Below are positions 2,536 to 39,099 of a DNA stretch of 64,000 bases, one piece after another. The first letter of the stretch is position 1, and the number at the start of each line of letters is the position of its first letter. The DNA comes from Geosiphon pyriformis uo1 (Eukaryota; Fungi; Glomeromycota): assembly GCA_016748015.1 (NCBI GenBank), contig JAAOMT010000639.1, forward strand, positions 124,844-188,843, given 5' to 3'. Made by a program: the position numbers and the translations under genes. The notes beneath the pieces were generated by a model, which was not told the origin of the DNA, searched no databases, and saw only the letters and a program-made list of their open reading frames with translations.

Positions 2536-2764
2536 TAATAATAATAAATATAATTCATAAATTTCAAATTTTTATTATATATTAATCCTAATTTTTTATA
2601 TTTAAATTTTATTTGAAATTTAAACTCTGTTTTTACAAGTAATTAAAAATAATTTTACAAATTTTACAATTTTATTTATTGTTATTTTAATATATTTATA
2701 TATTTTTAATATGTTTTAATATCAATTTATTAATACAAATATATATATTTTTATTTATATTAAT

Positions 2765-4670
2765 AAATAAAACCCAAATACTACATAATACTATAAATCA
2801 AACTAAGTAATTTAAACTAGATGCAAATTACATATTTTCTACATATGACCAGTTACTTAAACCAATCAAAATAATATTACAGATTTATTATAATACATAT
2901 ATTATTATTAATATTGGAAAAAAATATATATAATTTATGCAAACCAAAACAAATATCAAAAGTCTTAGTAATTCTAAGTAATTTAACTATAATATTTAAA
3001 AGCAAAAATAACAAACCACAAATTACAAAAGATACAAAATTATCACAACAAATTAAATTACTTTTTTTTATAATTATTTTATATTTAAATCTTATTAATT
3101 ATATTTTATTATATTAAATTATTTTTAAATTATATATAAAATTTACAATTTTATTAATAATAACTTTAGTATTAAATATAAACAAAGTTTTTTGATATTA
3201 ATTTTTAAAAACAATACTTTTATATAAAATAATATATAATATATTATCAGTTTTATAAGAAAAAAACAATTATAAAATACCAGATAATAATAAGTACAAC
3301 TTTAATAGAAATTTTTACAAAGTTATATATGAATTTAACAATTTTTTATAAACAATATAATTATTTTTATATATAAAAATATAATTAAAAAACTTGATTT
3401 TTTTGTACTAAGAACACAAAACACTAAAATATTTTTTATTATATAAATATTTATGTATAATAATAAATAAGTAATAATACAAAATTTTCATAAAATAAAA
3501 ACATAAACCAGTTATAAATTTATTTATAAACTTAAAAACTATATACAAGTTAAAATACCAAACCAAAAAAATTCAAACTCAATTAATATTTTTAATTAAA
3601 TTATTGTTAATAATACTAATATTTAGTTTAATCTTTTAATAAGTATAATAAACAACTTTAAAAATATTATACATAAAATACTAAACATTTTCAAAAACTA
3701 CTATTCTATTAATTTTAATATATTTTTTATAAATATAAACAAAAAACAATATATTTAAACAAATATAATATTAACAAGCTTATTAGTCTTTTTATTTTTC
3801 AAAATACTTAAATAATTTTTAATCTTAGATAAATTTATATTAAAATTTTTATATTTAATAATATATATTATATAATATTTTTTAAGTTAATACTTATTAT
3901 AAAAATTTAACAATATTATATTTAATTTAAATAAATAAATATTTAAAACAGTTTAATTATCTAAATATACTATTACAAAGCTAAAAGTTAACATATATTT
4001 TAAAGTCAAAACAACTACTTACAAGTTTGTCAACATAAAAAAACCAAATTTTATTTTAATAATAATAATTATGTTTAAATTTACAAAAAACACAATAATA
4101 TTATATTTTATTTCAAATATATTCAAGTTTTTTAAAAAACTATCTGTGTAAATATTGATTATTTTTAAGTTAGCATTAAATAAACTCTCTTTTATTACAA
4201 AAAAACTACATAAATTATATATATTAAAAGACTAAGATTTAACAGCTAAAAATAAAATAAATAATCAAAGATATTATAGCTTAAATAAATAATTATTAAT
4301 CTAAATTAATTGAAATAAGACTTTTAAAATCAAGTTTTTTTCAGTAATAAGACTTTTTTTAATTAAAAATTGGCTTATTTTTATGTAAAACTGCTCAATA
4401 AAAGCAATATCAAAATCTTTTAAATAAGTAAAAAATATTATATAAAAAAATAAATTTTTTAAAATAATAAATATTAAAGTATTATTAAAGAAATAAAATA
4501 CAAAAAACAAATTGTTTTTAAAAAAATATTATAATCCAAAAATATCTTAACAATTTTAGCTAAAAAATTATTTATTAAATTAAAATTAAATTTCACAAAA
4601 AATTGTAAAAAATAGTTAAAAAACTAATTTAATATTTATAGATCTGAAAATTTATATTTAAATAGCTAAT
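2765..4670 (-). mobile_element. LINE L0, 3' segment (oldest element, extremely AT-eroded; hosts the nest)
   Basis: 2770-2880 is the reverse complement of the LINE 3' UTR. 4540-4670 reverse-complements to the L2 region near 35980-36110. Confidence 0.75.
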
Positions 4671-6247: not shown

Positions 6248-7116
6248 TGTTACAGATGATTATTTGGAGTCTTAAATCAAATAACAAATCTATAACTTGG
6301 TGCTTGGTTGGTATTCTGGTGTTGATGTCTGAAGATTTTGTTGATCTGAAAGTTTTGTTGTGAAGTTCTTTGTATAATGAACAGAGATGGAATAGTTGTT
6401 TTTAATAGCCTCCCAGAATCGCAATTCTGTCGAATTTTTTTCTCAGCATAGTGGCTGGTAATTCTCCTGGTAAGCTATCCTCAAATCTATGAGTGTTCTA
6501 CTCTTGTTTCATGGGTCTTTTACCAGTCCCTATGATGTCTATATCTCAGTGCTTAATCTTTAATCAATTTAGTAAACAACAATAAAATCAAAGAAAAGAA
6601 AATAAAGAAAATAAAGTAAATAAAAAAAATAAAGTCAAATGCAATTGCAAGTTAGTATTCCATCAATAGCCATGATCAAGAGCTATTGTTCCAGTGTAGT
6701 CAAGTATCAATTATTATCAACATGAAGTGTTGATAGTAGGGAGTAAATTGAGATAGTGAATAATTATTTATTGATATTGGGAAATAGAAGGTTACTTAGA
6801 TCAAATCTAAACTGAGAGGTTTGTCTTTTCTACTTTTAATGCTATCATTATATATACATAATTTGGGTTTTATGAGATTGCTTACATTCTTAAGTGATGT
6901 GCTATAATTTCTCAAGCAATGTGCTGTATTTTCTTGACATTACTCCATATTGCTGAATAATATGCTATGATTTCTAACATTGCTTCATATTGCTAAGCAA
7001 TGTGCCATGATTTCTGACATTGCTCCATATTGCTGAGCAATGTGCTCACATGCTAACTACTACTCTCTTATTGGTCTACTAATTTTTTTATATTTGTTTT
7101 CTTTTTATGAGTAATA
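6248..7116 (-). repeat. E1 3' LTR (869 bp)
   Basis: Termini TGTTACA...GAGTAATA; homologous to 11310-12092 and 28340-29219; next to the PPT (reverse complement AAAAAGGAGGAGATAA, 7117-7132). Confidence 0.92.
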
Positions 7117-7131
7117 TTATCTCCTCCTTTT

Positions 7132-7767
7132 TTAATATTGAGCTCTGTCAAAATTTTTGTTTTGAATTAATTCTAATACTTCTTTTTTAAGTATTGTTTG
7201 TTCGACTCTGTTCCTCATGTTTTCTACTTGTGTATTGTTCATTCTTCCCTATTGGTTAATGGTTATGGTTTCCATGTCAGAGTGTAACAGTATTTCTGGA
7301 TAGTTTCGAAATATGTTGTGTAGTCAGTATATTGTTTTAACGTGTAGTGTTAAATTTGTTTTCTTTCTAATAAATTTTTCAATTTGTTGTATTATATTTT
7401 GGTTGAATATTCTCTTAGATTTGTCAATATACAACTCCTGAATATTCAACTTTTGACCTAACTGATAGTAGCAATATGATATTAAAAGTCATTCTGTCTA
7501 TTGCTTCCAATTTTTTTTTGTAAGCTTTTCTGTTGGTGCCATAACAAATATTTTCCCAAAAGTGTTCTTTACTTTTTCTATTAAGTTATCTGTCCAGTTT
7601 TTATTGTGCTTTGGTGGTTGCTGGTATGATGTATTCTTTGTCTTTCTTTTAGTGTTTCAATAGCAAATTATTTGGTTGTTAATAACAATTTCCATGTCTA
7701 ACTGTTGTTTACTTAAGGCCTGGAACAATTGTTGAGCTATAATGTGAATATGATCTGGTATTTCCAT
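7132..7767 (-). pseudogene. E1 ORF3 (212 codons, unknown accessory protein, MEIPDHIHIIAQQLFQAL...DRAQY*)
   Basis: Same length and sequence as E2 ORF3; TATATAAA starts at 7813; several nonsense transitions. Confidence 0.75.
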
Positions 7768-7824
7768 TTTTCTTGGTTGCTTTTGTCGCAAGTACTGTGT
7801 TCTTTTTTATATACTCTTTTGGTT

Positions 7825-8132
7825 GTTCAATTTGACATGTTCAGTTTAATAACTATGATTGGTTCCTGATTTCATGAAATCTCATCTGGTTGCACTAGTA
7901 TTTTTTGTACTCCCAGTTGTGGAATGTTATTGGTGGATTATGATGCTGTCTGGTGATATTGTTTCAGTTGATCACCATGTGCTGCTTTGGCTAAGATTTT
8001 GTTGTCCCATCTTAATTTATAAGCTCTATTTCCAAGAATTTCTTCTATGTGAAATGGTTCATTCCATTTGGAGTCAAATTTTCCACTCCATTGTTTTTCT
8101 GCCTTGGTGCGATGTAAAAGTACTTTGTCTCC
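7825..8132 (-). pseudogene. E1 integrase C-terminal remnant (GDKVLLHRTKAEKQWSGKFD..W..PF)
   Basis: Matches E2 27330-27630 and is fused directly to post-protease sequence. Confidence 0.85.
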
Positions 8133-11038
8133 TTCTGTTTTTCTTTGCCATTGTCATCCCAAGAGAGTATTGGTGGCAACATATTGTGGTCTTTATTGGT
8201 CCAGGAAACTTGATAAGCTTCTCAGGTAGGTTTCTTTTTTTCTTTTTCCACTTTGATAAGTAGGGCTGATGGCAGGGTGATGGGTTTGAAGTGGCTACAC
8301 ATGGCTGGTACTCGTGTGTGTTGGCTGTTTTGGCTAATTTGCAACTCTTGGGTGGTCCAGTTAAGCATTGTGTTTGTTTTGGACAGCCAGTCATTACCAA
8401 CTAGGGCTTGGTATTGGGTGGCTTCCATGATCAGTACTTTGATTGGTACAATTATGCCGTTGACTTCAATAGGGAAGTTGTCAATCTCACCAATGGGGGT
8501 TTCGGTTGTTTCATTGGTGGTTATAATTCTGGCACTGGCAGCACAATCAACTTAGTGACTTAATTGATCCAAGAGTTGTCTTGTGATAATGCTACCAGTT
8601 GATCTACTATTTAGTATTAGTTTAATGGCATGACCATTAACCTTTGCATCAGTGTACATAGTGGTGATTGGTTTGGTGTCAAGAGTGGCACCACTGAATA
8701 ATGAAACTGGTGTGGTTTTTTCAAATTCGAATGAAAAGATTGCAGCTAATAATTTGTTGTTAGTTATGGTGGCTGGAGGTATATTGCTGATAAGTGATTT
8801 GTGTTGGATGGGTTTCTGGTTGTTGGATAAGACATCTTCTGGGGTAACCAGGAGACTTAAATAGTTTTGAGAACTCGAGTTTTGAGTATACCTGGTTCCT
8901 GAACTCTGCTGTTGTGATTCTGATGGCTGGTTGGATGAACTGGGAATCAGTTGGTAAACAACCATCACTAATCTCCAGTTTTGGGTAATTCTTAATCTGG
9001 AGTTTTCTGATGTTATTTGAGCTGGGTTGGATGGTGGTGTTTGGACTATAGGTGTTTGATAAATTATTTGTGGCTGCAGTGGTTGATATATTATTGGTGG
9101 CTGTGGTTGATAAATTGGAGATTGATATATGAGTGGTTGATATATTGGTTGTTGCATTATTGGCAGATAAGTCAGTTAATATGGTGCTAGATTGGATTGG
9201 TAATTCGGAGTTGAAAACTGGTAATTAAGGTTTTGATATTGATTTTTCAATTGTTGGTTATCTATCTTTAACCTACAGTCAATCCTTAAATGTCCTTGTT
9301 TACCACAATAGTGACAAATATACATCTTTTGCTGCCATGGCTGATTGGATGATATTGATGGGTGCGACTGATTTGGGAAACAATTCATGTTTTCTTGGGT
9401 ATTGTGTTGTTGTGGAGGTTGATAAATTATGCAATTGTCAGCTAAGTATTTCTCTAATTTCTGATTTATTGATTCACTGAATTGCTTCAATTTGGAATCC
9501 AAATCAGATGATCTGTTCATCATTAGATTTACTGCTTGAGCATGGTTGGCTTCTAATTCAGTGGCTTCAAAATCTCTGACATTTGTGATGGCTGCTTGTA
9601 GATTAACTGGATGCATTGGACATACATATTGTAAAATGCTACTGCATAATCCTTGAATGAACTAATTTAGGATCTGGGCCACTGTAAAGTAATTAGCATT
9701 GATGGTTTGTATTTGGTGCAGATTCCTGTGGAAGTGTCCTAAGTAAGTGGTGACTGCTTCATTTTCTCTTTGCTTAATAGTAGTGAAGGTGTTTGCTAGC
9801 CAGTTAATGCTGTTGTTGTTGCTGAAATATCTTAAGAACTCAATTTTAAATGCATTAAAATCTTGGGATTTATTGATTAGGCTTTGATACCATAAATCAG
9901 CAGTATCCTGAAGAAAATATGAAATGGCTTGCATGGCTCTGACATTATTCCATCCATTGACCACTATGGCTTTTTTTATGTCATTAAGCCATACTTGGGT
10001 GTTATCTTCTTCACTGGTGAATTTTTCAAGTTTGGCTATTGGTGCGTATACCATTGGATCTAAGTTGGGTTGTAGTGGTTATTGAAGTGGTACTAGTGGC
10101 TGTTGAATCTGCTGGTGTGGTTGTTGTAGTGGCTGGCCAATTGGTTCAATTGGTGGTGGGTTAATGATAATAACAGGAAGTAGGTTTGGTTGATTAGTTA
10201 GATCGGAATTTTGATTGTTCTGATTGTGCTGTGTTTGAAAATTCAGAGTTTCAATTTCCAGATTTTTTAAATTTAGATTTTGCTAAGTCTGAAAGTTCAG
10301 GGTTTTGATTTCCAGATTTTCAGTGATCAGGTTCTGATAAGTAAATTCTTGATCTTTAGAGTTTTCTTCCTCTTTTTTTTGGTCTTTTTCTGATTCTGTT
10401 ACTTTCCAAGAACTCGTGGTTCCGAAATCTGGTTGGAATAATGGAGATTGGAGTTCTGATGGCATAGGCAATTGAGACTTAAATCCTTTGAAATACATGC
10501 TGTATGGTCCTAGAAGATCTTTTTTTTTTTGTTTACTCTGAAATGGAAATTGTCTAAAAGTTGATGTCATGTTTGATGTGGATGCACCTATAATATTGAT
10601 GGCACTTCTGGGTGTATAATGGTATGATAGATTAGTTGGTGATTCAACTCTTGTTTTCTTCTAAGTAGGTGGTTGTATCTTTTGAAGTGTTACTGCTGAT
10701 GTTTGTAATTTTTCTTTGCCTTTGTTTGTGTAGGTAATTTGATATCTTTGTTGAGTGTGAATTTCAATTTCTTTATTAATTTCAGTGAGGATTGCTGTGA
10801 AATTGTAATTTGTTGGTAGACTGGTATTCTGGATTAATTCATTGTAGAAGTTTCCTCTGGTTGAGTTAGTTTCTACTGATACTCATAGTAAATATGAGAT
10901 TTTCTTGTAGATGTAGAAATTGAAAACTGATTCTGCTGATAAGTGGTTGTCAGTTAATCATAAATGTTGACAGTAGTGTTGGAATAAGGATTTTGCAAAT
11001 CCTAAATAGTTTGTCTCTGTTTTTTTGGATTCTGCCAC
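8133..11038 (-). pseudogene. E1 gag (CCHC knuckle) and aspartic protease
   Basis: YAPIAKLEKF.. retrotransposon-gag-like region; CHYCGKQGHLRIDC; LILNSRSTGSII (decayed DSG) and ALVGNDWL. Confidence 0.88.
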
Positions 11039-11079
11039 TGTTTGAATGAGTGTTGGTGCTGGTTCTCTGTAGGATTATA

Positions 11080-11096
11080 CCTTACAGAGAGCACTA
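11080..11096 (-). promoter_or_regulatory. E1 primer-binding site (decayed TGGTGCTCCCTGTGAGG)
   Basis: Reverse complement TAGTGCTCTCTGTAAGG lies 2 nt inside the 5' LTR end at 11099. Confidence 0.8.
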
Positions 11097-11309
11097 AATG
11101 TTACAGATGATTATTTAAGATTTCAAATCAAATAACAAATCCGTAACTTGGTGCTTGGTTGGTATTTTGGTGTTAATGTCTAAAGGTTTTGTTGATCTGA
11201 AGGTTTTGTTATGGAGTTTTTTGTATAATAGACAGAGATGTAATAGTTGTTTTTAGTAGCCTCCTGGAATTACAATTCTGTTGAATTTCTTTCTCAGTGT
11301 GGTGACCAG

Positions 11310-12092
11310 TATTATTCATAGAAAAAAAAAACAGATATAGGAAAATAGGAGACCAATAGGAGAATAGTAGTTAGCATGTGAACATATTGCTTAGCAATGT
11401 GGAGTGATGTCAAGAAAATACAGCACATTGCTTAAGAAATTATAATACATTGCTTGAGAATGTGAGCAATTTCATAGAACCCAAATTATGTATATATAGT
11501 GGTAGCATTAAAAGTAAAAAAGACAGATCTCTCAGTTTAGATTTGATCTAAGCAATCCTCTATTCACAAATATTAATAAATAATTATTGACCATCTTAAT
11601 TTACTTTCCACTATTAACACTTCATGTTAATAGTAAGTAATACTTAACCACACAAGAACAATAGCTCTTGATTATGGCTATTGATGGGATACTAACTTGC
11701 AATTGCTTTCATTTATTTCTTTATTTTTATTTTTATTTTCTTTTGATTTGTCATTTCATTGGTTTTACTAAACTGATTAAAAATTAAGTGCTGAGTTATT
11801 GATGTTAAGAATAGCCTAGTAAAAGACCCCAAAGGAAGGGTATAGGAATTAAAAATTTAAGAATAGCTTACCAGAAAGGCATCTCTGTCAAGATTACTGG
11901 CCACTATGTTGAGAAAAAAATTTGACAAAACTGTGGTTTTGGGAGGCTATGAGAAAGACAACACTTGAATCTCTGTCTATTATACAAAAGACTCCACAAC
12001 AAAACCTTCAGATATTGACACCAGAATACCAACCAAGCACCAAGTTACAGATTTGTTATTTGACTTGAGACTCCAAATAATCATCTGTAATA
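11310..12092 (+). repeat. E2 5' LTR (783 bp)
   Basis: TATTATTCATA...CTGTAATA (decayed TG..CA); TATATATA at 11491; followed by the PBS. Confidence 0.93.
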
Positions 12093-12094
12093 TT

Positions 12095-12112
12095 TGGTGC
12101 TCCCTGTGAGGT
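12095..12112 (+). promoter_or_regulatory. E2 PBS TGGTGCTCCCTGTGAGGT
   Basis: Starts with TGG 2 nt after the LTR; complementary to a tRNA 3' end ACCUCACAGGGAGCACCA. Confidence 0.92.
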
Positions 12113-12155
12113 ATAATCCTACAGAAAACCAGCACCAACTACACTTATCTCAAAA

Positions 12156-13243
12156 GTGGCAGAATCAGAAAGTATAGGAGCAAACCATTTAGGATTTATG
12201 AAATCCTTATTTCAACACTACTGTCAACACTTAGGATTAAACCAAAATCATATATCAGTGGAATCTACCTTCAATTTCTATGTTAACAAGAAAATTGCAT
12301 ATTTGTTAGGAACACCAGTAAACACTGAATTAGCAAGAGAAACTTTTTATCACAAATTAATCCAAAACACCAGCCTACCAACAAATTATAATTTCACATT
12401 CATCATTACTGAGATTAATAAAGAAATTGAACATTATACACAACAAAAATACCCAATTACTTATACTAGTAAAGACAAAGAAAAATTACAAACACCAGCA
12501 GTAACACCAAAACAAATACAACCACCCACTTGGAAGAAAACCAGAGTTGAATCACCAACAAATCCATCATACCACTATACACCTGGAAGCACCATCAACA
12601 TTACATCAACAGGTGCATCCACATTACACATAACATTAACCTTTGGACAATTCTCATTTCAGAGTAAACAAAAAAAAGAAGATCTTTTAGGACCATATGG
12701 CGTGTATTTTGAAAGATTTAAGTCCTGATCGCCAACGCCATCAGGACTTTGATCTCTGTCATCCCAACCAAATTTTGGAACTGCAAGTTTCTGAAAAGTA
12801 ATGGAATCAGAGGAAGAACAAGAAGAAGAGGAAGAAAAATCTGAAGATCAAGAATTTACTTACCAGAACCCAATCCTAAAGAACCCAAACATTGAAATCC
12901 CAAATTTCCAGACTCAACAAAATCTAAATTTAGAAAATCTGGAAATTGAAACTCTGAATTTTCAAATGCAGCCAAATCAGAATGATTAAAACCTCGACTT
13001 AATTAATCAACAAAACTTACCTCCTGGAATCATTATTAATCAGCCACTAGCCGAACCCATACAATAACCATCCCAACAACTGCTTCAACAAATTCATTAG
13101 CTGCCTATATTACAACAACAATAACAAATGACATATGCACCAATCACGAAGCTCGATAAATTCATTGGTGAAGAAGACAACACCCAAATCTGGCTGAATG
13201 ATGTAGCTAAAGCAATTATAGCCAATAACTGGGATGATGCTAG
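12156..13243 (+). pseudogene. E2 gag, N-terminal part (interrupted by E3)
   Basis: Homologous to E5 57290-58390. WDDA|RAMQAI rejoins across the E3 insertion. Confidence 0.88.
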
Positions 13244-13923
13244 TATTACAGGTTGGAGTAACAAGCTAACAGATAGCAAGGGAGAACAAGATTGTAGGGT
13301 GATGGAAATAATCAAAGGAGAATTTAACTTTAAAAAGTGAATTGAATGAGTATGGATTCAATGTGCGAGATCAGTCTCATAAAATATCTCAGTCACTATT
13401 CTTTTCAAAAGGTAACAAGAGAATCTGAAGATAGAGGGATAGTCCGTACTGTCAACAATTGATTACTATTGGTATAATTCTATGCCTCATGTTGGCACTC
13501 TTAGAATTCAATATCAGATATCAACTTGTGCTTTTCAGTCACATTTATTCAAATAATCTTCAAATGCTACAATTATATACATTAGGAAAAGGCCAACAAG
13601 TAATCTTTTATCCTAAGATGTTTGGATACTTGAAGATAGGGAAAGGAAAATTAACAATAAGAGAGTGATTGAGATAAAAGTTGTTATTTTTATTTATTTG
13701 ATTCTTGTTTGAGAGATGATTTTCTACAGCTAAAAGACTCATCATTTATATAGCTAATGAAAGTAGTCAACGATTAGGTCAATGATCAGGTCAATAATCA
13801 GGTCAACAGTCAGGTCATTGATCAGATCAATGATCACTATCTAAAAATAGAGTGGCTAATTATATGACATCAGTGGCTAATACATGTAATAACTAATAAA
13901 AATTATGGGTTTCAATCATAACA
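13244..13923 (-). repeat. E3 3' LTR (680 bp; five 12-bp TGATCAGGTCAA units)
   Basis: Direct repeat of 20260-20963. Confidence 0.95.
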
Positions 13924-14548
13924 TCATTCTCTCCAAAGAGATTGAGCTCTGCCAAAATCAAGCTATTTATAGGGTATTCTAATTGAAAGGTTTTGTCTAA
14001 CTCAAAACTAACTAGTTTGTTGAAGTCTTTTGTGAATAGAGTATATAGTACTTGAGGTGAAATAAGCTTTGTATCCAAGAGACCAAATCTTTGTATAAGA
14101 GTTTTGGCTCTTCTTGTAATAGTCAAAACTCTTGGGACATCTAAATATATAATGCCCGAAATTTCCACTTGTATCTCTGAAGTTGTTTTCTTCATGAGCT
14201 TCATTTCTTCTATAATTCACCAAAATGACCATAGAGTTCTAGTTGTCTTCCATATGACAAGTTTTTGTCTATGGGCAAGATTTCCTTAATCGTTTTTCCA
14301 ATTGTCATAGAAGGTGTAAGTATTGCTGCTGTTATGCTTTTCAGCAAATACTTATCCATTTTGCTACCAATTCTTTCTCTTCTAGTAGTGGTTTTCTTTG
14401 GTCTAATAATAGTATGTGTTCCACTGTTATTAGTTATGGTGGTTTGTTTTCCAATGGTCAGAGTAGCATTTGGATAATTTTTGATCCAGTACTCATGGAG
14501 AGTGTAAAAAGTGTTTTGAATGTTTTGATCTAGGAAATAATTGTTCAT
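13893..14548 (-). pseudogene. E3 ORF3 (MNNYFLDQNIQNTFYTLHEYW...; one frameshift near 14215; reads through the PPT into the LTR)
   Basis: Two long ORF pieces (14644-14210 and 14204-13893); TATAAATA at 14594-14587, 46 nt upstream of the ATG at 14548. Confidence 0.65.
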
Positions 14549-14589
14549 GTCGATTGAAGATACCTCTGTTTTGGGAATAATGCATTTAT

Positions 14590-15903
14590 TTATATCTGAT
14601 TTTTGTTGATCATTTGGGTCAGTATTACTATAACAGATAACCAATCAGGTCGTTTGTGATATTTCTTGAGTTGTGTGCCATAAACAGGATGATCATTGAA
14701 GATTGTTCCATATTGATCTTGTAAGATATAAGAACTATTGTTCAAAACTTTGTTAACTATAAAGGGTCCTTTCCATCAGCTAGAGAATTTATTACCATAG
14801 ACATTGTCTCTGTCTGAATGGTATTCTAAAACTAAGTCACCAACACTTAAGAAAAGTGTTTTATATGTTTTTTTTTTCTTAAGCTTCTCTTGGAATTGTT
14901 TTATCTTTTTAAAGGCAATTATCCGTGCTTCTACTAATAAGTCAAGAATAGTACCAAGTTTTTTTTGCAAAATGTCTTTGTAATTCCCTATTGTTATTTC
15001 TTCAAAGAGTATTGTCTTAATGTCAGTTTCTATTGGTAGGGTTGCCATTTGTTCATAGAATAGATAAAAGAATTCATAACTTGTTGTGTCATGATTCACA
15101 GTTTTATAAGCAAACAAGGCTGAAGGCAGTATTTTGTCCCATAAGTTTGTTTCTTCACTGGTTTTGGCTAGGGTTTTACATAGTGTTCTATTAAAATGTT
15201 CCACTAGGCCATTTGTTTGGGGGTGATAAGAAGAAGAAAGTTTGTGACATATTCCTATTTTTCTGCAAAGTTCTTTAACAAGTGTACTAAGAAAAGCTCT
15301 TCCTCTGTCAGATAAAAGTTTTTTAGTGCAGCCATGGCGACAAATGATATCTTCATAAATGAAATTGGCTATTGAGACTGCTGTTTGGTCTGAAGTGGCT
15401 CTTGCTTCTACCTACTTTGTAAAATAGTTGGTAGCTGTGATAATGTATCTGTTGCCATCAAGAGTTATTGTTAAAGATCCAACAACATCTATACCAATTC
15501 TGTCAAAGAGTTGACCAACAGAGATTGGATGGATATCTTCTTTGCAATTGGGTTTTCCTCTTCTTTGGCAGATATCACAAGTTTTGATGTATTCAGCAAT
15601 GTTTTTTCCCAAGATAGGCCAATAATAGCAAGCTAGAGTTTTCTGAATTGTTTTTGTTTTTCCAAAGTGTCTAGCTAATGGATCAGTGTGCATATTGTAG
15701 ATCACAATTTCTCTTTCTTCAAATCTGATGACTCTCTGAGGGCAGTCAGGATCTTTTCTATTTCTTTTATAAAGTTGGTTCTGGCGAATCAAATAGAAAT
15801 TTGATTGTTTGCACAAATGTTCTCTTTGTTATCATGTGTATTTTGGTGGGTATTGTCCTTTACCCAAAAATTCCATTAAGGCAGAGTAGTTGTTCAAATC
15901 TAT
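14590..15903 (-). pseudogene. E3 integrase (HHCC zinc domain, DDE core, GPF/Y tail), separate from RT-RH
   Basis: MHTDPLARHFG..CDICQRR, GIDVVG, SDRG, VEHFNRTL and WKGPF, all in one frame. Confidence 0.9.
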
Positions 15904-15969
15904 TATTGTGTTTGTCAAAAAAGGGAATTACTAATAATTAAGTTGGTTTGGTTTGAGAGGGTTGTTCTG

Positions 15970-18686
15970 TTACTGGATGGTAAGTCTGGAGAGAGTGTCG
16001 GCATTTTGATGATTAGCTCCTTTGCAATGTTGAATATCATAGTTGAATTCATCCAAGTGGAATATTTAGCGAGTTATCCATTTGTGTTCTAGCCTCTTTT
16101 TGTTGCACAGCCAAACCAAAGCTTGGTAATCTGTTACCACCAAAAACTTCACACCAAGAAGATACTTACTCCAGTAACTGGTGGACTATACTACTGCTAA
16201 GCATTCTTGTTCAGTGACTGAATAGTTCTGTTCTGTTGGGGAAAGGGTTCTATTGGCATAGGCTATGGCATGTTCTTTGCCATCTTCATTTTTCTGGAAG
16301 AGAACAGCACCAAGTTTAAAGCCAGATGCATCAGTGTGAAGAATAAAGGGTTGATCTAGATCAGGTTGCTTGAGGATGAGTTCTGTAACCAGTTTTTCCT
16401 TTAAAGTTTCAAAGGCTTTTTGCTGATGTGTTCCCCAATGGTAATTGACATTTTTCCTGAGTAGTTGATTGAGAAGAGAGGCGATTTTGGAGAAATCCTT
16501 GACAAATTTGCGATAATAAGAGACCAAACCAAGAAAAAAGCATAGTTCATGAATGTTCATTGGTTGTTTGATGTTTTGGACTTTTTCAACTTTGGCTGGG
16601 TCAGGAAAGATTCCATCTTTTGTGATAAGATGACCAAAGAACTGGGTGGATTGTCTTCCAAAGAAAGATTTGATTGGGTTGATCTTGAGGCCAGCATTTC
16701 TGAGGAGATCAAAAACCTTTTGCAAATGTTCCAGGTGTTCATCCCAGGTTTTTGAGTATACCATTATGTCGTCCAAATAGACTAGAACAAAGTTTTCCTT
16801 GACTGATTCAAATACTTTATCCATTAAGCATTGAAAGGTGGGAGGGGCGTTGGTAAGACTAAAAAGCATGACTGTGAATTCATAGGTGCCATACTTGGTG
16901 ATGAAAGCAGTTTTCTTTCTGCTTTCTGGATCCATCTCTACTTGTCAGAATCCAGCAGTTAAGTTAATGGTTGAGAAAAAAGCAGCATCTTTGAATTGGT
17001 CTAACATTGCATCAATCTTGGGAAGTGGGTACATGTTTCTTTCAGTGATAGCATTTAATTGGCAGTAGTCAACACAGAAGTGTAGTGTTCCACTTTTCTT
17101 GGATACCACTACAACTGGGAAAGCCCATTTACTCTTAGTTTCTTGTATGAATCCAAGTTCTTTTATCCAGTTTATCTCTTTCTTGATAAACTCATCATTG
17201 TGTCAATTGGATTGATAAGGCTTCAAATGGATGGGTCGAGTTTCTCTGGTGGTAATGGTGTGTTGTATCACATGGGTATATCCAGAAGTATCACCTTCTT
17301 TGGAGATAACTGGGCTATTTCTAGCCAGCAAATTTTCAATGTCTATTTTTCTTTCTTCTGAGAAGAGTTCTTTTTGTTCTACAACCAGTAATTAGATCTC
17401 AGGTGGTTCATTCTCAAAGGACTTCTGTACTTCTTTCAATTTTTCTCTGGATATCAAACTGATTGGTTCACAATCTCTGTAATAGATCAGACATGATTTG
17501 CATTCATTGCTTGGAAAATACAAGGGTTTGTTGCACCAACACCGAACATAAGGGCCATGTCACCAAAAACTGTATTTGGCTTTCTTGCCAGGTTTTCTTT
17601 CAAAGGTTTTTCTAAGAATATCATAATAAGATCAGCAGATCAGCTTGCCATTTACAATGATTCCTTCTTTGTCTGCTTTAACATTGTCCAGTGGTTTGCC
17701 ATTGCTGGTGAAGGTGGTATAGACAAGTTCAGTAGTTTCTTCTTGCTCTTCTTGTTCTTTTTCTTTATTGCTTTTTTTATCATCTGATTCATCTGATTGT
17801 TCTTCTTCTTGGTTTTGTTTGGGTACTGGAGGAGTTGTTCAATGGCAACACTTAACCACAATGGGTTTCTTACCACATCTGATAGTTAATTCACAAAGTT
17901 CATAATCAAGCAAAGCTTTTGCTTTCTTGAGTCATTCATTGCCAACAATGATGGTGTATTCCTTGGCTTCAGAAACTTCCATGTCAGTTTCAATGCTGAT
18001 TCCATTAATGCGAACAGGAACAGCTTTGGCAATACTCAGTCCTTTTTTTTTGTCACCATGTATGTTGGTCATTGGTCTGGTAGAAGATTCATCAATCTTT
18101 CTACCAATTGCTTCTAAGAAGTGTTTGACAATGACACTAACAGATAATCTACTGTCCAGAATTAAGTCAATGAAGTATTCAGCCACTTGGGCTTTACAAA
18201 TCAGAGAGATAACATTGCTGTTGTCAGCAAGTCCAGCTTGGCAAGGGAGCTTGTTGGTTTTTGGTGTTTTCTTCTTTGGAATCAAGAATTTGCGAAAATC
18301 TTTTCTGAACTGTGGATGAGTCATTAACTGGCCAAAAATAATATGTACTGGGGTTTTCATGAGATCTTTAACAACGGAATAGGGTCCAAATTTTTGTACA
18401 ATTTCTGGGGGTTCCAACTTTGGAGAATTCTTAAAAACTTTAACCTTTGGTGGCTCATTGTTATCAGTGGCAGAAGTTGAGGCTTTGTTGGGGTCTAGAA
18501 CAAAATCAACCTTGGCTTTCTTCTTCTTTCTGGTTGGTTTTGAAATGTTGATTGCTAGTTCATCTATGTCATAGTCATCATCAGTTAAGTTAAAAGTGTA
18601 AAAGAGGTTTTCTTCTGGTTGGCTTGCACTCTCACCCTTTGAAGGTGCGCCTACCAGTTCAAAAGCTGATAAACAGTGGCTTCAAC
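15970..18686 (-). pseudogene. E3 pol: protease, acidic/Cys spacer, RT, RNase H
   Basis: LILDSRLSVSV, FCVDY, KTAFIT, YLDD, TDASG, EQECLAVV and NADTLSRLTIQ*, all in one frame. Confidence 0.92.
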
Positions 18687-20207
18687 TAGGGGATCCTCTC
18701 CAAAGAAATTGATGTTGGCATAATTGGATCTTTGATTGGGGACATTGTTGTTGTTGTTGGGTCTGTTGTTTTGGTTGTTATTGTTTCTGGAAGCTGGAGG
18801 AGACAGTGGAGGATTGTTACAATTTCTTGAATAATGTCTAGTTAATCCACAATGATAGCACACAGGTGGGCCACAATTTTGCTGTCTTTGATAAGGAGGT
18901 TGCTGGGGCTGGTTAAAACAAGGTTCATATCTAGGTCTTAGTGGTTGCTGGTTATTTCTGACTGCTTGTGCCAACAGTTCTAATAACTGGGCAAGGTTAG
19001 CTGTGAGTCTATCTATCAATTGTTCATTTGGGTCTTGGGTTTGGGTAGCAAAAGAAGTAGCAGCCACTTGAGGAGCAGGGGCCATGACAGAAACAGGAGC
19101 AAAAATTGGAAGTGTAGATCTCAGATGCATTCTTTGGTTATCTTCAATTCTTTGGGGGAGTTCAATAGCCATATCCATTATAAGGTTGTCTTTCAGAGCC
19201 AAGAGAGGCCAAAGAGCATACGATAAATCAGTTCTCAATCCTTTTGTGAAGGAGTGAATTTTTTGCTCTTCAATCCAGTTTCTACCAGAGTCTACACACT
19301 TGATGAGTTTTCTGATTGCTTTGGCATATTTGATCACAATTTCACCAAGACCTTGGGTTCTTCTTTTTAATTCTATACACCATTTGGATATTAAGATGGG
19401 GGTTCTGAATTTGTTTTCAAACCAGATAGTAAAAGAGATATTGTTTTCTCCAATATTTGCTGGGGTCTATCTAACAATTTTTTGTTGAGCACCAGTATTG
19501 GTTTCTTGTGAAAACCAGGTAGCAGAGGAGTCTTGGAGGTAGCCACCAATGATTTGGAACTTGTATTCATCATCATACTGGTTTGCAGTGGCTGCTCTTT
19601 CAAAATCATCTAACTATTCAATTAAATCTTGAGCATCACCTTTGAATAGGGGTAGTGGGGTGTTGTTTCTTTGTCCCAAAGCAGTTTGTATGCCTTAGAG
19701 GGTGGCCAGGATGTTTACTTGTATTGGATCTTGGGCTATTGGTTCAGAAGTTACTGTTTGTGTGGAGTGCTCTGATTCACTTAAGAAAAGATCAAAAATA
19801 GGGGCTGTTTAGTAGCTTTCTTCTTCTGTTTCAAAGAGAGTTACTGTTGATTGATGGGCAGTAATCCAAATGTGGATTTGATGATTTAGATATTCGAAAT
19901 CAGGGGGCTGTTGTTCAAAGGTTGTAGAATATAAAAGCTGATTGATACTGTTGTTTCTTTCTTCAAAGTTGTCTTCAAAATAAGCTTGATCAAAGTAATA
20001 GGTTGTATAAATTGTATAGGTTTCAGTTGAATGCTCATTCAGGAACCAGTTCCAAAAGTCTTGGAATTGTCTGCTAGATTGTTTTTTAATGAGAAAGCAG
20101 ATCAAGCAGGAGGGCAGAGGATTAAGTTCAATAAAATCTAGGTCATTTCTATTGTGTATTGCAAAGTGTTTTTCTGATTGCTGTGGCAGATATGAGTAAT
20201 CACCCAT
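18651..20207 (-). pseudogene. E3 gag with CCHC-type knuckle
   Basis: ATG at 20207 is in the same frame as ORF 19337-18651; PLFKGDAQD motif; CYHCGLTRHYSRNC. Confidence 0.85.
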
Positions 20208-20235
20208 ACAATGAGAGAATAAGTGAATTTTGACA

Positions 20236-20253
20236 ACCTCACAGGGAGCACCA
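20236..20253 (-). promoter_or_regulatory. E3 PBS TGGTGCTCCCTGTGAGGT
   Basis: Identical 18-mer to the E2 PBS; 6 nt from the LTR end. Confidence 0.9.
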
Positions 20254-20259
20254 CTTTTA

Positions 20260-20963
20260 TGTTATGGGTTGGAGTAATAAGCTAATGGATAGCAAAGGAG
20301 AACAGGATTATAGGGTGATGAAAATAATCAAAGGGGAATTTAACTTTAAAGAGTGAATTGAATGAGTATGAATTCAATGTGCGAGATCAGTCTTATAAAA
20401 TATCTCAGTTGTTATTCTTTTCAAAAGATAACAAGGGAATCTGAAGATAGAGGGATAGTCCATACTGTCAACAATTGATTACTACTGGTATAATTCTATG
20501 CTTCATGTTAGCGCTCTTAGAATTCAATATCAGGTATCAACTTGTGCTTTTTAGTCACATTTATTCAAATAATCTTCAAATGCTACAATTATATACGTCA
20601 GGAAAAGACCAACAAATAATCTTTTATCCTAAGATGTTCGGATACTTGAAGGTAAGGAAAGGAAAATTAGTGATAAGAGAGTGATTGAGATGAAAGTTGT
20701 TATTTTTATTTATTTGATTCTTGTCTGAGAAATAATTTTCTACAGCTAAGAGACTCATCGCTTATATAGCTAATGAAAATAGTCAATGACCAGGTCAATG
20801 ACTAGGTCAATGATCAGGTCAATGATCAGGTCAATGATCAGGTTAATGGTCAGGTCATTGATCAGGTCAATGATCACTATCTAAAAATAGAGTGGCTAAT
20901 TATATGACATCAGTGGCTAATACATGTAATAACTAATAAAAATTATGGGTTTCAACTATAACA
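20260..20963 (-). repeat. E3 5' LTR (704 bp; seven 12-bp units)
   Basis: TGTTAT...ATAACA; direct repeat of 13244-13923. Confidence 0.95.
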
Positions 20964-20967
20964 CTAG

Positions 20968-23900
20968 AGCCATGCAAGCAATTCTCTACTTTCTTCAGGA
21001 CACTGCTGATACATGATACCAAAGCTTTGCCATCAAACCCCAAAATTTTAACAAATTCAAAACCAAATTCTTAAGATACTTTAGTAACAATAATAGCATC
21101 AACAAATTAGCCAACATCTTCGCTACAATCAAACAAGGGGAAACTGAAGCAGTTACCACTTACTTGAGATGGTTCCACAGGAACCTATGCCAAATTCAAG
21201 CAATCCAAGATGACTATTTTACAGTGTCACAAATTCTAAACCAGTTCATCTGTGGGTTGCACAGTAGCATCCTCCAATGCGTACACCTAAGATACCCACA
21301 AACTCTTTAGAATGCAGTTATCAATGCACGAGATTTTAAAGCAGCTGAACTAGAAGCCAATTATGCTCAAGCCATAAACTTAGTCATGAATGGATCATCT
21401 GAATTGGATTTCAAATTGAAACAATTCAGTAATTCAATTAATTAGAAATTGGAAAGATACTTAGCTAACAATCGCGCAATATATTAACCATTACAATGAT
21501 GTAATAATTCTGGAAACACAGATCGTTTCCAGAATCAGTTGCATCCAACATCTTCAACCAATCAACAGTGGCAGTAGGAAACACATATTTGCCACTATTG
21601 TGATAGACAAGGACATTTGCAATTTGAATGTCGAAAAAAAATAAGCGACCAGAGATTAGTTAATCAGTATCAAAATTCTGATTGCTGACTACAAACTCAG
21701 AATTATGTCAGTAATTAATCAAACCCAGCTCTATATTAATAAGATTACTTACCTATGATACAGCCAATATATCAAACACCAATGATGCAGCAATTATACT
21801 TATCTCCAGTCTATCAGCCTCCAGTAGCAATTTATCAATCACAGTCCCAATCCAATTATTAGCCGCAGTCTCAGGTAAATTATCCACCCCAACAACATCA
21901 AACACTACCACAGAACTTATCTCAAAACAAAACTCAAAGACCAAGATTAATACAGCAAAGCTGGAGATTGTCAATGGTAGTCTATCAACCAATCTCCAGT
22001 TCCATGGCACAACCATCAGAATCTTGACCATGAAATTTGGGCACCAGGTACACCCAAAACCCAAATTCTCAGAACTATTTAAGTCTTCTGGTTACTCCAG
22101 AAGATGTCCCACCCAATAATCTGAAAACCAACCAAAAACAATCACTTACCAACAACATACCTCCAGCCATCATCACCAATGACGAATTACTAGTAGTGAT
22201 CTTTCCATTCGAACTTGAAGAAACTACATCAGTTTTATTATTCAGTGGAGCTGCTTTTGACACCAAACCAATTACCACTATGTACACTGATGCCAAAGTT
22301 GATGGCCACTCCATTAAACTGATCTTAGATAGTGGATCAGCTGGCAGCATTATTACAAAGCAACTTATGAACCAATTAGGTCGCCAAGTTGATTGTGCTG
22401 CCAGTGCCAGAATTATAACTGCCAATGGAGCAACCAAAACTCCCATTGGTAAGATTGATGACTTCCTTATAGAAGTCAATGGTATTATTGTACCAATTAA
22501 AATATTAGTCATAGAAGTCACCCAATACCAAGCACTCATTAGTAATAATTGGTTATCTAAAACCAACATATCGCTTGATTGGAATACACAGGAGCTTCAA
22601 ATCAGCCAGAACGGATGACACACACATGTACCAGCCACATGTGGCCACTTTACAACCACCTACTTGACAGCACCACTCATAGAGTTCGAAGAAAAAAAAG
22701 AAAAACCTACCTGGGAAGCTTATCAAGTGTCCTGGGCTGGTGAAAAACACAATGAACTGCCACCAGTACCTTCATGGGATGACAATAACAGGAAAAAAAA
22801 GAAAAGAGAAGAACTTATCTGGAATGCTGACCAAAACTGAAAAATCCATAACAATCAGGATGAATTATCAATAACCTGGAAATGGGAAGAGGATAAAATA
22901 AAAAGAAAAGGGAAAAAAAAAAAAAAAATTTCATACCAACTCTTATTTACCCTACATATACGTACACAACACTACAATCAAGCTATTGTCACCCAAAACT
23001 CATATGCATTGATTGTAACAAGAAATTATTGTCAATGGGCACGTGTTGTGATAACAATAAGGAATACTCAACAGCAACCAAATTCTATTGTTGTGCATGC
23101 ATCATAGAACACTTTGGATGTCCAAAACAAAAAGAAAAATAGGACAATGAATCATGCTTGGCTTGTGGTGAAACTTTTCTGGACAAAGAAATGTGAAATG
23201 ACATTCTTAAACAAGAAGAAATGTGTGACAAATCATGTCAATACACAATTCTCATAAGCAACTGGATAAGAAAAGGAATGTTTATAGACACTGCCTGGAG
23301 ATGAGCCATTAAACGTCTGAACAGATGTCCACATGATAATAACAAAATCTGGTAAATGGCACTTGCCAAAATTGAAGGAGCAACCCCAGAAGAAATAAAA
23401 ACAATCAAAGACAACCCATCTGAACTCATAAAACTTAACTGGGACCCAGAACCAGTCATAAATCTACTAGATCCAGAACAATTCTACAAATACTACCAGG
23501 AATTAGCACTTACTAAAAAAGAACAAGAGCAACAGTTGGAAAAAATCAATACTTGACTATGTGACCATTGTTTAATTCTCTGTGACTTCCAATATTGTAA
23601 TGAGTGTGACCTCATTTACAATCCACCACCATGCATAATCTACACAATCTCAGAGGAAGAAAAACCAATCAGCAGCTGTGCATTGGAATTGGAATCAGTT
23701 TCCAATTCCGATTCAGACTTCGACAATAATGACAACAAAAATAACAGTTCCAGCTCTATTCAAAATGGCAATAACAATAACAACAATTCCAACTCGGATT
23801 CAAACTCTGATTCAAACTATGAACAATATATTGCACTCTTTGATCTCACCAAGGAGCAGGAACTAAAATGGTTCAGCAATAATGATAAAGATATTATGCC

Positions 23901-26222
23901 AGAATGCACACATGATACTGACGCAGGATTTGATCTGAGATATCTGGGGAAAGATTCCATTAAATTGGAACCACATTCACACACTTGCATCAATAATGAT
24001 AAAGATATTATGCCAGAATGCACACATGATACTGATGCAGAATTTGATCTGAGATATCTGGGGAAAAATTCCATCAAATTGGAACCACATTCACACACTT
24101 GCATCAATCTGAAAATAGCACTGGAAATTCCAGCAACAACAATGGTTCAATTAGCATCCAGAAGTAGTTTAGCAAAAAGGGAATTAACATTAGAAGAGGA
24201 ATAATTGACACAGAATACATAGAAAATATTATTGCTATGCTACAAAATGATTCAGAAAAGACATATACCATAGATCCAAATAAAAAAATAGCACAGGCAA
24301 TATTCCTACTTCTGATGAAAATAGCTCAATTATTGTCAGTAGGAAACAGGGAGGAATTAGGGATTACAGTTAGAGGGATACAGGGATTTGGATCAATGGG
24401 TATAATAGATATACTAATCAATATGGCAGAAGAAAAAATTGTTGACAAAGAAGAAATTATCTCAACCCATCAAGCAATTTCTATTCCACTATATGACCAG
24501 TATATGTTAGCCATAAAAAGAGAAGTGAAGGATCAAGCTTAATTGTTTGAAGCAAAAGCCACCATTTGTGAATCAGGAGAGATTGGACTTACCAATCTCT
24601 ACATCTCAGCCAACAGCCCCAAAAATATTAAAATTTCCATCCACAACACAACTGGAAACATCATTGAAATACTAAAGGGAACCATTATTGGATATTTAAC
24701 CACTGAAGTTGAGGATTAACCACCAAACCATATTCCAGATTTTCCACAACTGTGTGGATATGTAAACATCACATCACAAACCATCTACAGATAAAGTGGA
24801 TGCTATCTGCTCCAACCAGAACAATTGGAACAGAAAAACATAAAAAATCTAGACCCACTCCAACAGATGTTACTCAACAATTTTAATGACATCTTTGCTA
24901 GCAAAAATGAATTTGGCCACACCAATATCATCTAGCATTAGATCAAAACTAAAGATGCAATGCCAATTAAACAAAAAGCATACAAAGTACCACCACCTAG
25001 CCATGAGATCATTTGTCAAGAAATCAATCAGATGCTTGACAATGAGCTAATTCAGCCATCAATGAGTCCATGGTTGTCACCAGTAGTACTAGTCTGGAAG
25101 AAGAATAGAAAAATTTGCTTTTGTGTAGATTACCAAAAATTGAATGGAGTAACCAAGAGAGACAGCTACCCAACTCCAAAGATCCAAGAACTATTCAACA
25201 CTTTTGGAGGAAACAAATGGTTTTTGACACTGGATTTAGATAGTGGCTACTGGCAAGTAGCTATGGATTTAGCTGAAAAAAAAAAGACCACATTTACAAC
25301 AAAAGAAGAGAATTTTGAATTTGAAATCATGCCATTTGGCTTGATAAATGCTCTAGCAACATTTCAATGGCTCATGGAAATCATATATACTGGACTACTA
25401 TGGAAATCAGTAGTCATATACTTAAATAACACCAATGTATTCTCAAAAACATTCAATGATCATCTGAATCACCTCTAGCAGGTGTTTGAAAGACTAAGAA
25501 GAGCTGGATTGAAACTAAATGCAATGAAGTGTTTCTTTAGAAAAATTGAACTCAAGTTTTTGGGACATGTTGTAAGCAAAGATGATATCAAAATGAATTC
25601 AAATAAGATTGCAATAGTAAAAAACTTTCCAGTACTAACAAACTTGCCAGAACTAAGGGCATTTTTGGGCTTCACAGATTATTATCACCACTTCATTAAG
25701 GACTTTTCCAAACTAGCTCAGCCATTTTACCAGTTACAAACTAAGAATGTAAAGTATGAATGGACTGAAGCTCAACAAAAAGCATTCGACACATTGAGAA
25801 GAAAGCTTATTCAAGCCCCAGTGTTGATGTATTCAGACCACAGCAAACCATTCATTATCACTACAGATGTATTAGGTTAAGCATTGGGAGCAGTACTATC
25901 ACAGAAAGAACCAGATGGAAGAAAACATCCAGTAGCTTATGCCAGTAAAAGCTTAAGTCCAGCTGAAAAGAACTATAGAATTTCAGCACTGAAACACTTA
26001 GCAATCTATTGAGCAGTCATGAAATGGAGAGAATACTTGAGCCAAAAGTTTGAAATATACATGGATCACAAGGAATTGACTTCAATTCAGAAACAAGAAT
26101 TTGCAGACAATTGCCATGCCAGATGAAAAATAGAACTTTCACTATTTAACTATACAGTACATTATAAAAAGGGAAAAAATAATGAAAATACTAATAGATT
26201 GTTATGAATAAAACAAATCTAA
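20968..26222 (+). pseudogene. E2 gag (C-terminal part), PR, Cys-rich domain, dUTPase, RT, RNase H
   Basis: CHYCDRQGHLQFEC; LILDSGSAGSII; AGFDL, RSSLA, KIAQAI, RGIQGFGS; FCVDYQKLN, DLDSGYWQ, YLNN (decayed YLDD); TTDVLG; stop at 26220-26222. Confidence 0.92.
23877..24104 (+). repeat. 114-bp in-frame tandem duplication inside the E2 dUTPase
   Basis: 23877-23990 is repeated at 23991-24104, with CAAT microhomology at the junctions. Confidence 0.95.
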
Positions 26223-26253
26223 AAACATTTCAACCTTAAAAATATAACAAAAG

Positions 26254-27630
26254 ATAAATATACAAAAATACCAACAATTTCAACATTATATAAATACCCA
26301 ATTGTTCAAGAAAAAATTATCTCAAAAAGAACAAAAGAACATAAAACAACAATCAAAATATTTTATTAACTATTAAAATATACTTTACCGAAAGAACAAA
26401 AAAAATCTAGATTAACTAACCAAAGTAATCACAGAACCAGAAAAAGAGAAAATATTATTCAACATGCACTCAGATCCAACAGCAGAACATTTTCATAAAA
26501 AAACAACCATGGAAAGAACCAAAAAAAGATATTATTGGCCATCAATATATTCAAATATCATCCAATATGTTCAAAATTATAATGCTTATTAGAGAAGAAA
26601 AGGAACAAGATCCAGTAAACCATTGAGACCAATCAAAGTAAAACAACTATTTGATTACATTGGAATTGACTTAGTTGGACCATTAACAATCACCAGCAGA
26701 GGCAACAGATATATTGTAGTAGCCATGAACTATCTTATCAAATGGCCAGAAGCAAAAGCCATTCAAAGAGCAGATGCAGAATCCGTTGCCAAATTCGTTC
26801 ATCAAGATTTGATTTGTTAACATAAATGTCTAAAAGAACTATTATCAGATCAAGGAACTCACTTTGTAAACAGAATACTGGCAGAATTAAGTCAAAAATT
26901 TGGAATTAAAAGACCATTATCATTGTTATATTATTTACAAACCAATAGACTAGTTGAAAGATTCAATAGAACATTGTGTGAAGCAATTGCCAAAATCAGT
27001 CAAGAAAACCAAGATAAATGGGATTTGTTCATACCATCAGTATTATTTGCTTATCGGACAATGAAGCAAGATACCACACAAGCAACACCATTTGAACTAG
27101 TATATGGTAGAAAAGCAACATTACCAGTTGAGATAAAGGTCAATACATATTCAACTGAACCAATAACAGAAGATAATTTTCAAGAAACATTGTTGAGAAG
27201 AACATATGACTTAATGAAAACACTAAAAAACAGACAACAAAAAGCAGCTGACAACATACAAAAGTCACAAGAGAAACAAAAAGAGAGACATGATAACCAA
27301 CTACCAGACAAACCAGTTGAATTCAAAATTGGAGACAAAGTACTTCTACATCATACTAAAGCGGAAAAACAATAGAGTAGAAAATTTGATCCCAAATGAG
27401 ATGAACCATTTCACATTAAAGAAATTCTTGGAAATAAAGCTTACAAATTAAGATGGGACAACAAAATTTTAGCCAAAGCAGCACATAGTGATCAACTGAA
27501 ACAATATTACCAGATAGCATTATCATCTATCAATAACATTTCACAACTAGAAGTACAAAGAATACTAGTTCAACCAGATGAGATTTTATGAGATCTGGAA
27601 CCAATCATAGTTATTAAACCAAACACATAA
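26254..27630 (+). pseudogene. E2 integrase, separate ORF (start decayed ATG>ATA), 459 codons
   Basis: MHSDPTAEHF, GIDLVGP, SDQGTHF, VERFNRTL, FKIGDKV, ..EPIIVIKPNT*; no chromodomain. Confidence 0.9.
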
Positions 27631-27648
27631 AATCAAACAATCAGAAAG

Positions 27649-27657
27649 TATATAAAG
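27649..27657 (+). promoter_or_regulatory. Putative internal TATA box for ORF3 (TATATAAAG)
   Basis: 41 nt upstream of the ORF3 ATG; positionally conserved in E1 (7813), E3 (14594) and E4 (48858). Confidence 0.6.
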
Positions 27658-27689
27658 ACACAGTATACGCAACAAAAGCAATCAAGAAA

Positions 27690-39073: not shown

Positions 39074-39099
39074 TAAAAATTAAAACTTCTTTCTTTCCT

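Follow-up and report, generated by a model that had tools for sequence, protein, structure and literature searches.

Architecture of the locus

The window analyzed here, a 64-kb stretch of the genome of the glomeromycotan fungus Geosiphon pyriformis, was found by self-comparison to hold a nest of decayed retroelements. Pfam domains of reverse transcriptase (RT), RNase H, integrase, dUTPase and LINE endonuclease are present, and no recognisable host gene was found within the 64 kb. Three LTR elements are inserted into one another, E3 lying inside E2 and E2 inside an LTR of E1 (Table 1). E3 can be classified as a Ty3/Gypsy LTR retrotransposon from its TG...CA LTRs, its target-site duplication (TSD) and the order protease, RT, RNase H, integrase, the protease label being taken from a motif alone. 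Its frames at 17932-19466 gave no Pfam match, and in the RT/RNase H fragment (16186-16944) several conserved residues are altered as expected from C>T or G>A changes. The E3 and E2 families both have 4-bp TSDs and have one primer-binding-site-like motif in common.

Table 1. Retroelements and other features of the 64-kb window (positions within the window)
Feature	Position	Strand	Remarks
E3 3' LTR, left copy	13244-13923	-	First TG reads TA; site of the main finding
E3 5' LTR, right copy	20260-20963	-	TG...CA ends
E3 target-site duplication CTAG, 4 bp	13240-13243 + 20964-20967	.	Flanks both LTRs
Primer-binding-site-like motif, E3	20240-20253	-	Adjoins 5' LTR; same motif after an E2 LTR
E3 gag-like and protease-like frames, broken	17932-19466	-	CCHC and LILDS motifs; labels inferred
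E3 RT/RNase H fragment	16186-16944	-	YLDD kept
E3 integrase core fragment	14776-15411	-	rve E 1e-5, under Pfam cut-off
E2, dUTPase-bearing Ty3/Gypsy, interrupted by E3	11310-29219	+	LTRs 11310-12092, 28340-29219
E2 target-site duplication CCAG, 4 bp	11306-11309 + 29220-29223	.	Flanks E2 LTRs
E1, 5' LTR split by E2	6248-11309	-	LTR piece 6248-6446 vs. 11099-11297
LTR piece paired with 6643-7112	31040-31488	-	Beyond N gap, no matching TSD seen; putative sister only
Oldest LINE, in pieces	2725-4665, 37915-38859, 45958-46159, 46531-47312 (span 2725-47312)	-	10-12% GC
L1, least decayed LINE	39064-45724	+	Endonuclease, RT, RNase H; 41% GC, CpG o/e 0.32
CpG-keeping short stretch	1-240	.	8 CpG seen vs. 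7.2 expected; candidate unmethylated host DNA

The dominant LTR family, of which Geosiphon has hundreds of decayed copies, carries a dUTPase domain (PF00692) between protease and RT (60818-62215 and 23557-24204). For the dUTPase-bearing frame at 60818-62215, the 120 matches listed of 560 are all named Geosiphon pyriformis and are 62-83% identical. Fungal Gypsy elements bearing dUTPase are already known; a link between the domain and uracil pressure in this host is a guess. The dUTPase region of E2 also contains a 114-bp tandem duplication (23880-24107), the units of which differ by 4 transitions and 0 transversions in 112 columns. Further LTR-like sequence, for which no partner was found in the window, lies inside the split LTR of E1 (29279-30735) and ends at a gap of 215 N (30736-30950); some CpG is left in its part 29897-30735 (7 seen vs. 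20 expected). When 48702-64000 is compared with 8130-27813, transversions between the families are skewed: read on the coding strand, A/C and A/T far outnumber G/T and C/G, in line with the A-rich composition of retroelements.

Divergence between sister LTRs

The original prediction, made from the sequence, was that the two LTRs of E3 differ in their first ~300 nt by 26 transitions and by no transversion. All 26 differences were recovered in 13244-13550, including the one at 13245 (A/G), and the whole-LTR alignment has 53 transitions and 0 transversions in 674 gap-free columns (52 and 0 with the ends trimmed); a tandem unit also contains a 24-bp indel. Many of the changes were said to lie in CpA or CpC and some in former CpG, which agrees with the proportions of sites that differ (CpA 13/86, CpC 10/44, CpG 16/24); CpT sites have changed as often too (14/84). 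The excess outside CpG persists on the full alignment, where it comprises 37 of the 53 differences.

The other LTR pairs show the same spectrum. The E2 pair has 72 transitions and 2 transversions in 761 columns, the E1 piece 6248-6446 differs from 11099-11297 by 25 transitions and 1 transversion in 195 columns, and 31040-31488, a putative sister only, differs from 6643-7112 by 41 transitions and 2 transversions in 433 columns. Over the 2061 columns of the three pairs (E3, E2 and both E1 pieces) the pooled count is 190 transitions vs. 5 transversions; omission of the 31040-31488 piece leaves 149 and 3 in 1628 columns, and the pairs proven by TSDs, E3 and E2, alone give 124 and 2 in 1433 columns. 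The pooled transition/transversion ratio (ts/tv) is 38, with a lower 95% bound of 16, or of 13.6 for E3 alone. Changes outside CpG make up 135 of the 189 that could be classified, and this part alone (135/5) lies above the ts/tv of wheat transposable elements (TEs) at p = 3e-11.

Runs of 70-90 bp free of differences occur near one LTR end in both E3 (13827-13915) and E2 (about 12000-12070). They may be due to chance or to gene conversion, and overall clustering is not significant.

Direction of change

Sister LTR pairs alone do not separate C>T from T>C, and outgroups are needed. When other LTRs of the window served as outgroups, all of them had C/G at 32 non-CpG sites but T/A at only 4, while 29 further sites were mixed and 17 gave no information; E3's own differences could be polarised at few places only. 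We also polarised proteins, scoring as derived each residue that differs from the commonest one in its column, over 389 of the 465 columns in an alignment of the 120 listed proteins plus the window copy. Of the 5218 derived residues, C>T or G>A accounts for 3497 and the reverse for 510; 528 need a transversion, and the rest are ambiguous (420) or need several changes (263). A strong directional C>T process acting beyond CpG, as originally proposed, is borne out by these counts together with the non-CpG share of the LTR changes. In codon-fixed non-CpG classes, where P>S and G>E represent CpC, H>Y and M>I represent CpA and R>K represents CpT, the rates ran from 10 to 18% vs. 0.3-2% for the reverse; P>S was at 10%, H>Y at 13%, M>I at 17% and R>K at 18%, these four having reverse rates of 0.5-2%.

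Assembled contigs of sequencing run X1, which may be the source sample and hence not independent, point the same way on 11000-21200. At least 858 of 1640 C positions show C>T and at least 1024 of 1941 G positions show G>A, with at least 2735 transition places vs. at least 369 for all kinds of transversion; only 38 CpGs remain in this region. Next to none of the stretch is present in runs X2 and X3. The process thus runs from C:G to T:A. Between different elements of the window ts/tv is only roughly 1-6, a figure that includes change during replication of the lineages, and the flood of transitions therefore arises after insertion.

The predicted damage to coding sequence is visible as well. Catalytic Asp is replaced by Asn in the translated frames (YLNN, FVNN, LILNS). 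Three or more homologues could be aligned to 35 in-frame stops, and at 31 of these the homologues have a Gln, Trp or Arg that C>T or G>A would turn into the stop, extending the claim that Trp and Gln codons had become stops. The 120 proteins are gene-caller products, from which stops have been filtered out.

Decay in nested layers and regional loss of CpG

Per-element loss at non-CpG sites was 36/424 (8.5%) for E3, 47/486 (9.7%) for E2 and 52/414 (12.6%) for E1, which is the order expected from nesting, the difference between E3 and E1 not being significant (p = 0.056). The LINE layers had been described as progressively richer in AT with age, and their GC content indeed falls from 0.41 through 0.27-0.32 and 0.20-0.25 to 0.10-0.12. 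The AT-richest LINE is a single copy split by both L1 and the 33-kb block 4666-37914, its ends rejoining at positions 35981-35986 of the ruler LINE, and since these two insertions interrupt it, it is the oldest. Positions with C/G in L1 read T/A in the oldest LINE in 200/308 and 237/347 cases, while the reverse occurs in 11/458 and 22/566. CpG decay by itself cannot bring GC from 41% to 11%.

Loss of CpG is regional and, as deamination of methylated repeats would have it, tied to the repeats, with 0 seen vs. 24.9 expected in 971-4668 and 2 vs. 125 in 31500-37950. Beside such CpG-free DNA, positions 1-240 keep 8 CpG (7.2 expected) at 35% GC; no open frame was found in the one frame translated. 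Host DNA free of methylation may have its border in this one short candidate stretch. The stretch bears on a second possibility, that a strong C>T bias acts genome-wide, through deficient repair of uracil or through damage that builds up with time in slowly dividing or dormant nuclei, and that only the CpG part is directed at repeats. Deamination of unmethylated cytosine is expected to give equal rates at CpA, CpC and CpT, as seen below, and genomes of arbuscular mycorrhizal fungi (AMF) are AT-rich (R. clarus, 27% GC). The implied equilibrium is near or under 10% GC, yet 1-240 has kept both its GC and its CpGs; as the stretch may be under selection, this argues weakly against a genome-wide bias, which we nevertheless regard as quite unlikely.

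Sequence context of the changes

For context counts a site was scored as C when either LTR copy carries C, and loss is given per copy. In the pooled LTR pairs the loss was 57/556 at CpA, 32/268 at CpC and 46/500 at CpT, that is, about 10% and alike in all three. Visible CpG dinucleotides number 32; just 1 of them is retained by both copies, and at 21 a CA in one copy faces a TG in its sister, giving an estimated CpG decay of 0.90 and a rate 9.6 times that at non-CpG sites. With a transversion rate of 0.0012 per site per copy, the excess over transversions computed from the pooled counts is about 100-fold for non-CpG and about 950-fold for CpG. Change at CHG (16/224) is not above that at CHH (119/1100; p = 0.11), a preference for CpA is absent (chi-square p = 0.49), and distance to the nearest CpG has no steady effect on the rate of change.

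A pyrimidine on the 5' side raises the rate about 1.6-fold (90/738 vs. 45/586; p = 0.008, uncorrected, in one of about 10 context tests). One possible explanation for this is UV damage at dipyrimidines, Geosiphon being a surface-dwelling fungus. Nevertheless, RCA sites, which are not dipyrimidines, still changed in 12/218 cases, and this largely refutes UV as the sole cause. Tandem CC>TT changes are found at only 4/270, adjacent events number 4 vs. 3.5 expected, and CpG dominates, all of which makes a UV origin very improbable.

Strand symmetry and absence of runs

Each of the 8 LTR pieces has both C>T and G>A changes, in proportion to the available sites (p 0.18-0.82). The transition-only, non-CpG changes might speak for an APOBEC/AID-like enzyme that edits the cDNA of retroelements before they integrate. 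Such editing would put clustered G>A changes on one strand of the element and is contradicted by change on both strands; moreover, damage still grows in old nested layers and LINEs are affected too. The suggestion of an APOBEC-type deaminase is accordingly not supported, such editing being scarcely credible here.

Changes that repeat-induced point mutation (RIP) makes are strand-coordinated and clustered. Outside CpG, strand runs were found neither in the LTR pairs (p 0.33) nor in an internal replicate (p 0.89), the 3831 protein events gave none either (z 1.0; also -1.1), and no clustering of changes was found at 1-25 nt in the LTR pairs. An apparent strand coordination seen at first (112/182 vs. 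91.7 expected, p = 0.002) was rejected as an artefact of the CpG class, because the null allowed a single CpG to change at its two bases and the signal was gone outside CpG and in two replicates.

Comparison with RIP and other systems

RIP depends on RID and is confined to repeats, leaving unique DNA alone. The locus has one hallmark of RIP, namely C:G to T:A change with almost no transversions (190 vs. 5). The composite RIP index, however, exceeds 0 in only 9 of 125 1-kb windows, all of them in old AT-rich LINE layers, and the strict index thresholds of The RIPper are reached in 1 of 125; TpA/ApT in the interiors of the LTR elements is 0.65-0.79. The pattern, called RIP-like in the original prediction, is therefore not RIP in the strict sense: the outcome resembles that of RIP, but there is no preference for CpA, no strand-coordinated run and no index signal. 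In Neurospora crassa and other ascomycetes RIP likewise makes only C:G to T:A changes, in repeats, inactivates TEs and leaves AT-rich DNA, but it is premeiotic and prefers CpA/TpG (PMC12543289), whereas here CpG is about 10 times hotter, CpA, CpC and CpT are equal and runs are missing. The available text of a kingdom-wide screen reports repeat-enriched RIP signatures almost only from ascomycetes, and Geosiphon is absent from 12 of its 19 supplement files (PMC12543289). For Gigaspora margarita, like Geosiphon a member of the Glomeromycotina, RIP signatures are reported as absent (PMC8647823, citing Venice 2020), an index-based claim of RIP exists for Zoophthora radicans (PMC10515909), and TEs of rusts are described as giving no RIP index signal (PMC12210899).

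The mitotic mutation dependent on Dim2 in Zymoseptoria tritici is similar in that more than 95% of changes are C>T, in methylated repeats and with no need of meiosis, and it has been argued not to be passive deamination; according to the same source, over 98% of it falls at CpA and CpG is spared (PMC8016269), while in Geosiphon changes strike CpG most and show no preference among the other contexts. An enzyme-driven repeat mutator of RID- or DIM-2-like type, a kind of context-free or mitotic RIP acting on top of ordinary CpG decay, could nonetheless be at work. The ts/tv of 38 is within the range of dedicated mutators such as that of Z. tritici with Dim2 (PMC8016269), RID and DIM-2 are both reported for AMF (PMC8298701), every one of the 120 listed copies carries damage, at an event rate of 7% or more, and the mild preference for a 5' pyrimidine would also fit. 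The missing CpA preference and the position of CpG as hottest context speak against it, as do the lack of runs and clusters and the per-copy damage loads of the 120 listed copies, which range smoothly over 7-31% without strand overdispersion, although many weak rounds could hide bursts. On balance we hold a mutator to be unlikely.

Decay linked to methylation offers closer parallels. TEs of basidiomycetes and Tuber show strong CpG loss ascribed to methylation and deamination, but these signatures are described as CpG-only or as CpG plus one dinucleotide (TpCpG in Microbotryum) (PMC4352252), unlike the mostly non-CpG changes found here. In wheat LTR retrotransposons both CG and non-CG cytosines mutate faster than elsewhere, and LTR ages call for a faster clock; their ts/tv is 431/156, or 2.8, and CHG is raised in plants (PMC2996936), in contrast to the far higher ratio and the unraised CHG of Geosiphon. 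In the mucoromycotan Phycomyces blakesleeanus TEs are methylated at CG and CHH and not at CHG, the pattern that would give the present spectrum; that methylation was measured and is low genome-wide (3.4% CG, 0.9% CHH) (PMC11258239), whereas our evidence is a mutation spectrum. In the accessible parts of PMC12994199 and PMC12344493 nothing on the Glomeromycotina lineage was found, and the literature covered, which leaves the Geosiphon genome paper outside, yielded no report of this spectrum in Geosiphon, AMF or Glomeromycotina. We regard the C>T decay in all contexts as real, and probably as a new form of methylation-linked TE decay.

Among metagenome relatives, of which 80 of 469 confirmed stretches were kept, one informative young LTR pair (L080) has 5 transitions and 0 transversions. 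Locus pairs have ts/tv of 1.9-10.7, two of them with mostly third-position changes and hence shaped by selection, and polarity at the DNA level against these distant relatives was uninformative. Two Gypsy sequences that are 96% identical, L006:1-3712 and L008, differ by 128 transitions and 12 transversions in all contexts, with CpG about twice the others; though unpolarised, they suggest that a milder form of the all-context decay may not be unique to this host.

A probable mechanism

The simplest account, which we favor and consider somewhat probable, is that repeats carry methylation at CpG and, at a lower level, in other contexts, and that they deaminate gradually with poor repair. The host would methylate its repeats densely after a retroelement has inserted. 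Near-full CpG methylation, presumably by enzymes of DNMT1/DNMT5 type, would lead to loss of roughly 90% of CpG, and a weaker, context-free methylation of putative DIM-2 type to loss of roughly 10% at CpA, CpC and CpT. Methylcytosines of either strand and of every CpN context would then deaminate gradually with little repair of T:G mismatches, and weak T:G repair, or possibly long non-dividing periods, would make transversions about 100 times rarer than non-CpG changes. The outcome would be permanent inactivation, by Asp to Asn and by Trp, Gln or Arg to stop, and a drift to about 10% GC.

Methylation, enzymes and repair deficit are what we infer for Geosiphon; the literature agrees with them but is no proof. 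AMF are reported to keep DNMT1, DNMT2, DNMT5, DIM-2 and RID, and in R. irregularis 32.5-49.5% of cytosines were methylated by LC-MS (PMC8298701), while called CG sites amount to 13.8% of cytosines (PMC8647823). From these two figures, the LC-MS and nanopore values coming from different isolates and from another genus, much of the methylation in R. irregularis would have to be non-CpG. DIM-2 works in all CpN contexts according to a review (PMC13297926).

The size of the excess over transversions is the weak point of the deamination reading: being far above that of methylated plant TEs (ts/tv 2.8), it needs an extra assumption on repair or division rate. In the human germ line the ratio of CpG changes to transversions is roughly 30-fold. 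In human cells, mutation load is reported to rise about 33-fold when T:G repair (MBD4) is lost (10.1101/180588). By analogy, the two factors multiplied would reach the observed order of magnitude. The preference for a 5' pyrimidine is not predicted by plain deamination and runs against it, as does the case of Z. tritici, where the Dim2-dependent C>T changes avoid CpG and passive deamination was argued not to be their source (PMC8016269).

Element ages and implications

The pooled Kimura distance of the LTR pairs is 0.105, or about 50 My at the fungal rate of 1.05e-9 used in PMC12210899, while their transversion divergence is 0.0024 (95% 0.0008-0.0057). If neutral change is assumed to have a ts/tv of 2, the ages would be about 6 to 44 times too old, in support of the anticipated inflation of LTR-based ages. 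Standard transposon ages of such elements would therefore come out far too old. Kimura landscapes place the LTR expansion of Geosiphonaceae among the older waves (PMC11952901); its timing may deserve re-examination. Many Geosiphon proteins annotated as 'hypothetical' are decayed retroelement fragments.

Glomeromycotina have been described as lacking RIP signatures, and, as far as the available texts go, two methylome papers give no measurement of their non-CpG methylation. The deamination reading predicts non-CpG methylation of repeats at roughly 1/10 of the CpG level; otherwise a mutator or a repair defect would be indicated. It is conceivable, though we think it improbable, that genome defence by an active mutator also exists outside Dikarya, in Geosiphon, through an enzyme of RID or DIM-2 type which turns C to T in repeats independently of context and is strong enough to have left no intact copy of the largest LTR family; if so, it would escape RIP indices based on CpA. 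The spectrum itself is an outcome of RIP strength to which CpA-based screens are blind.
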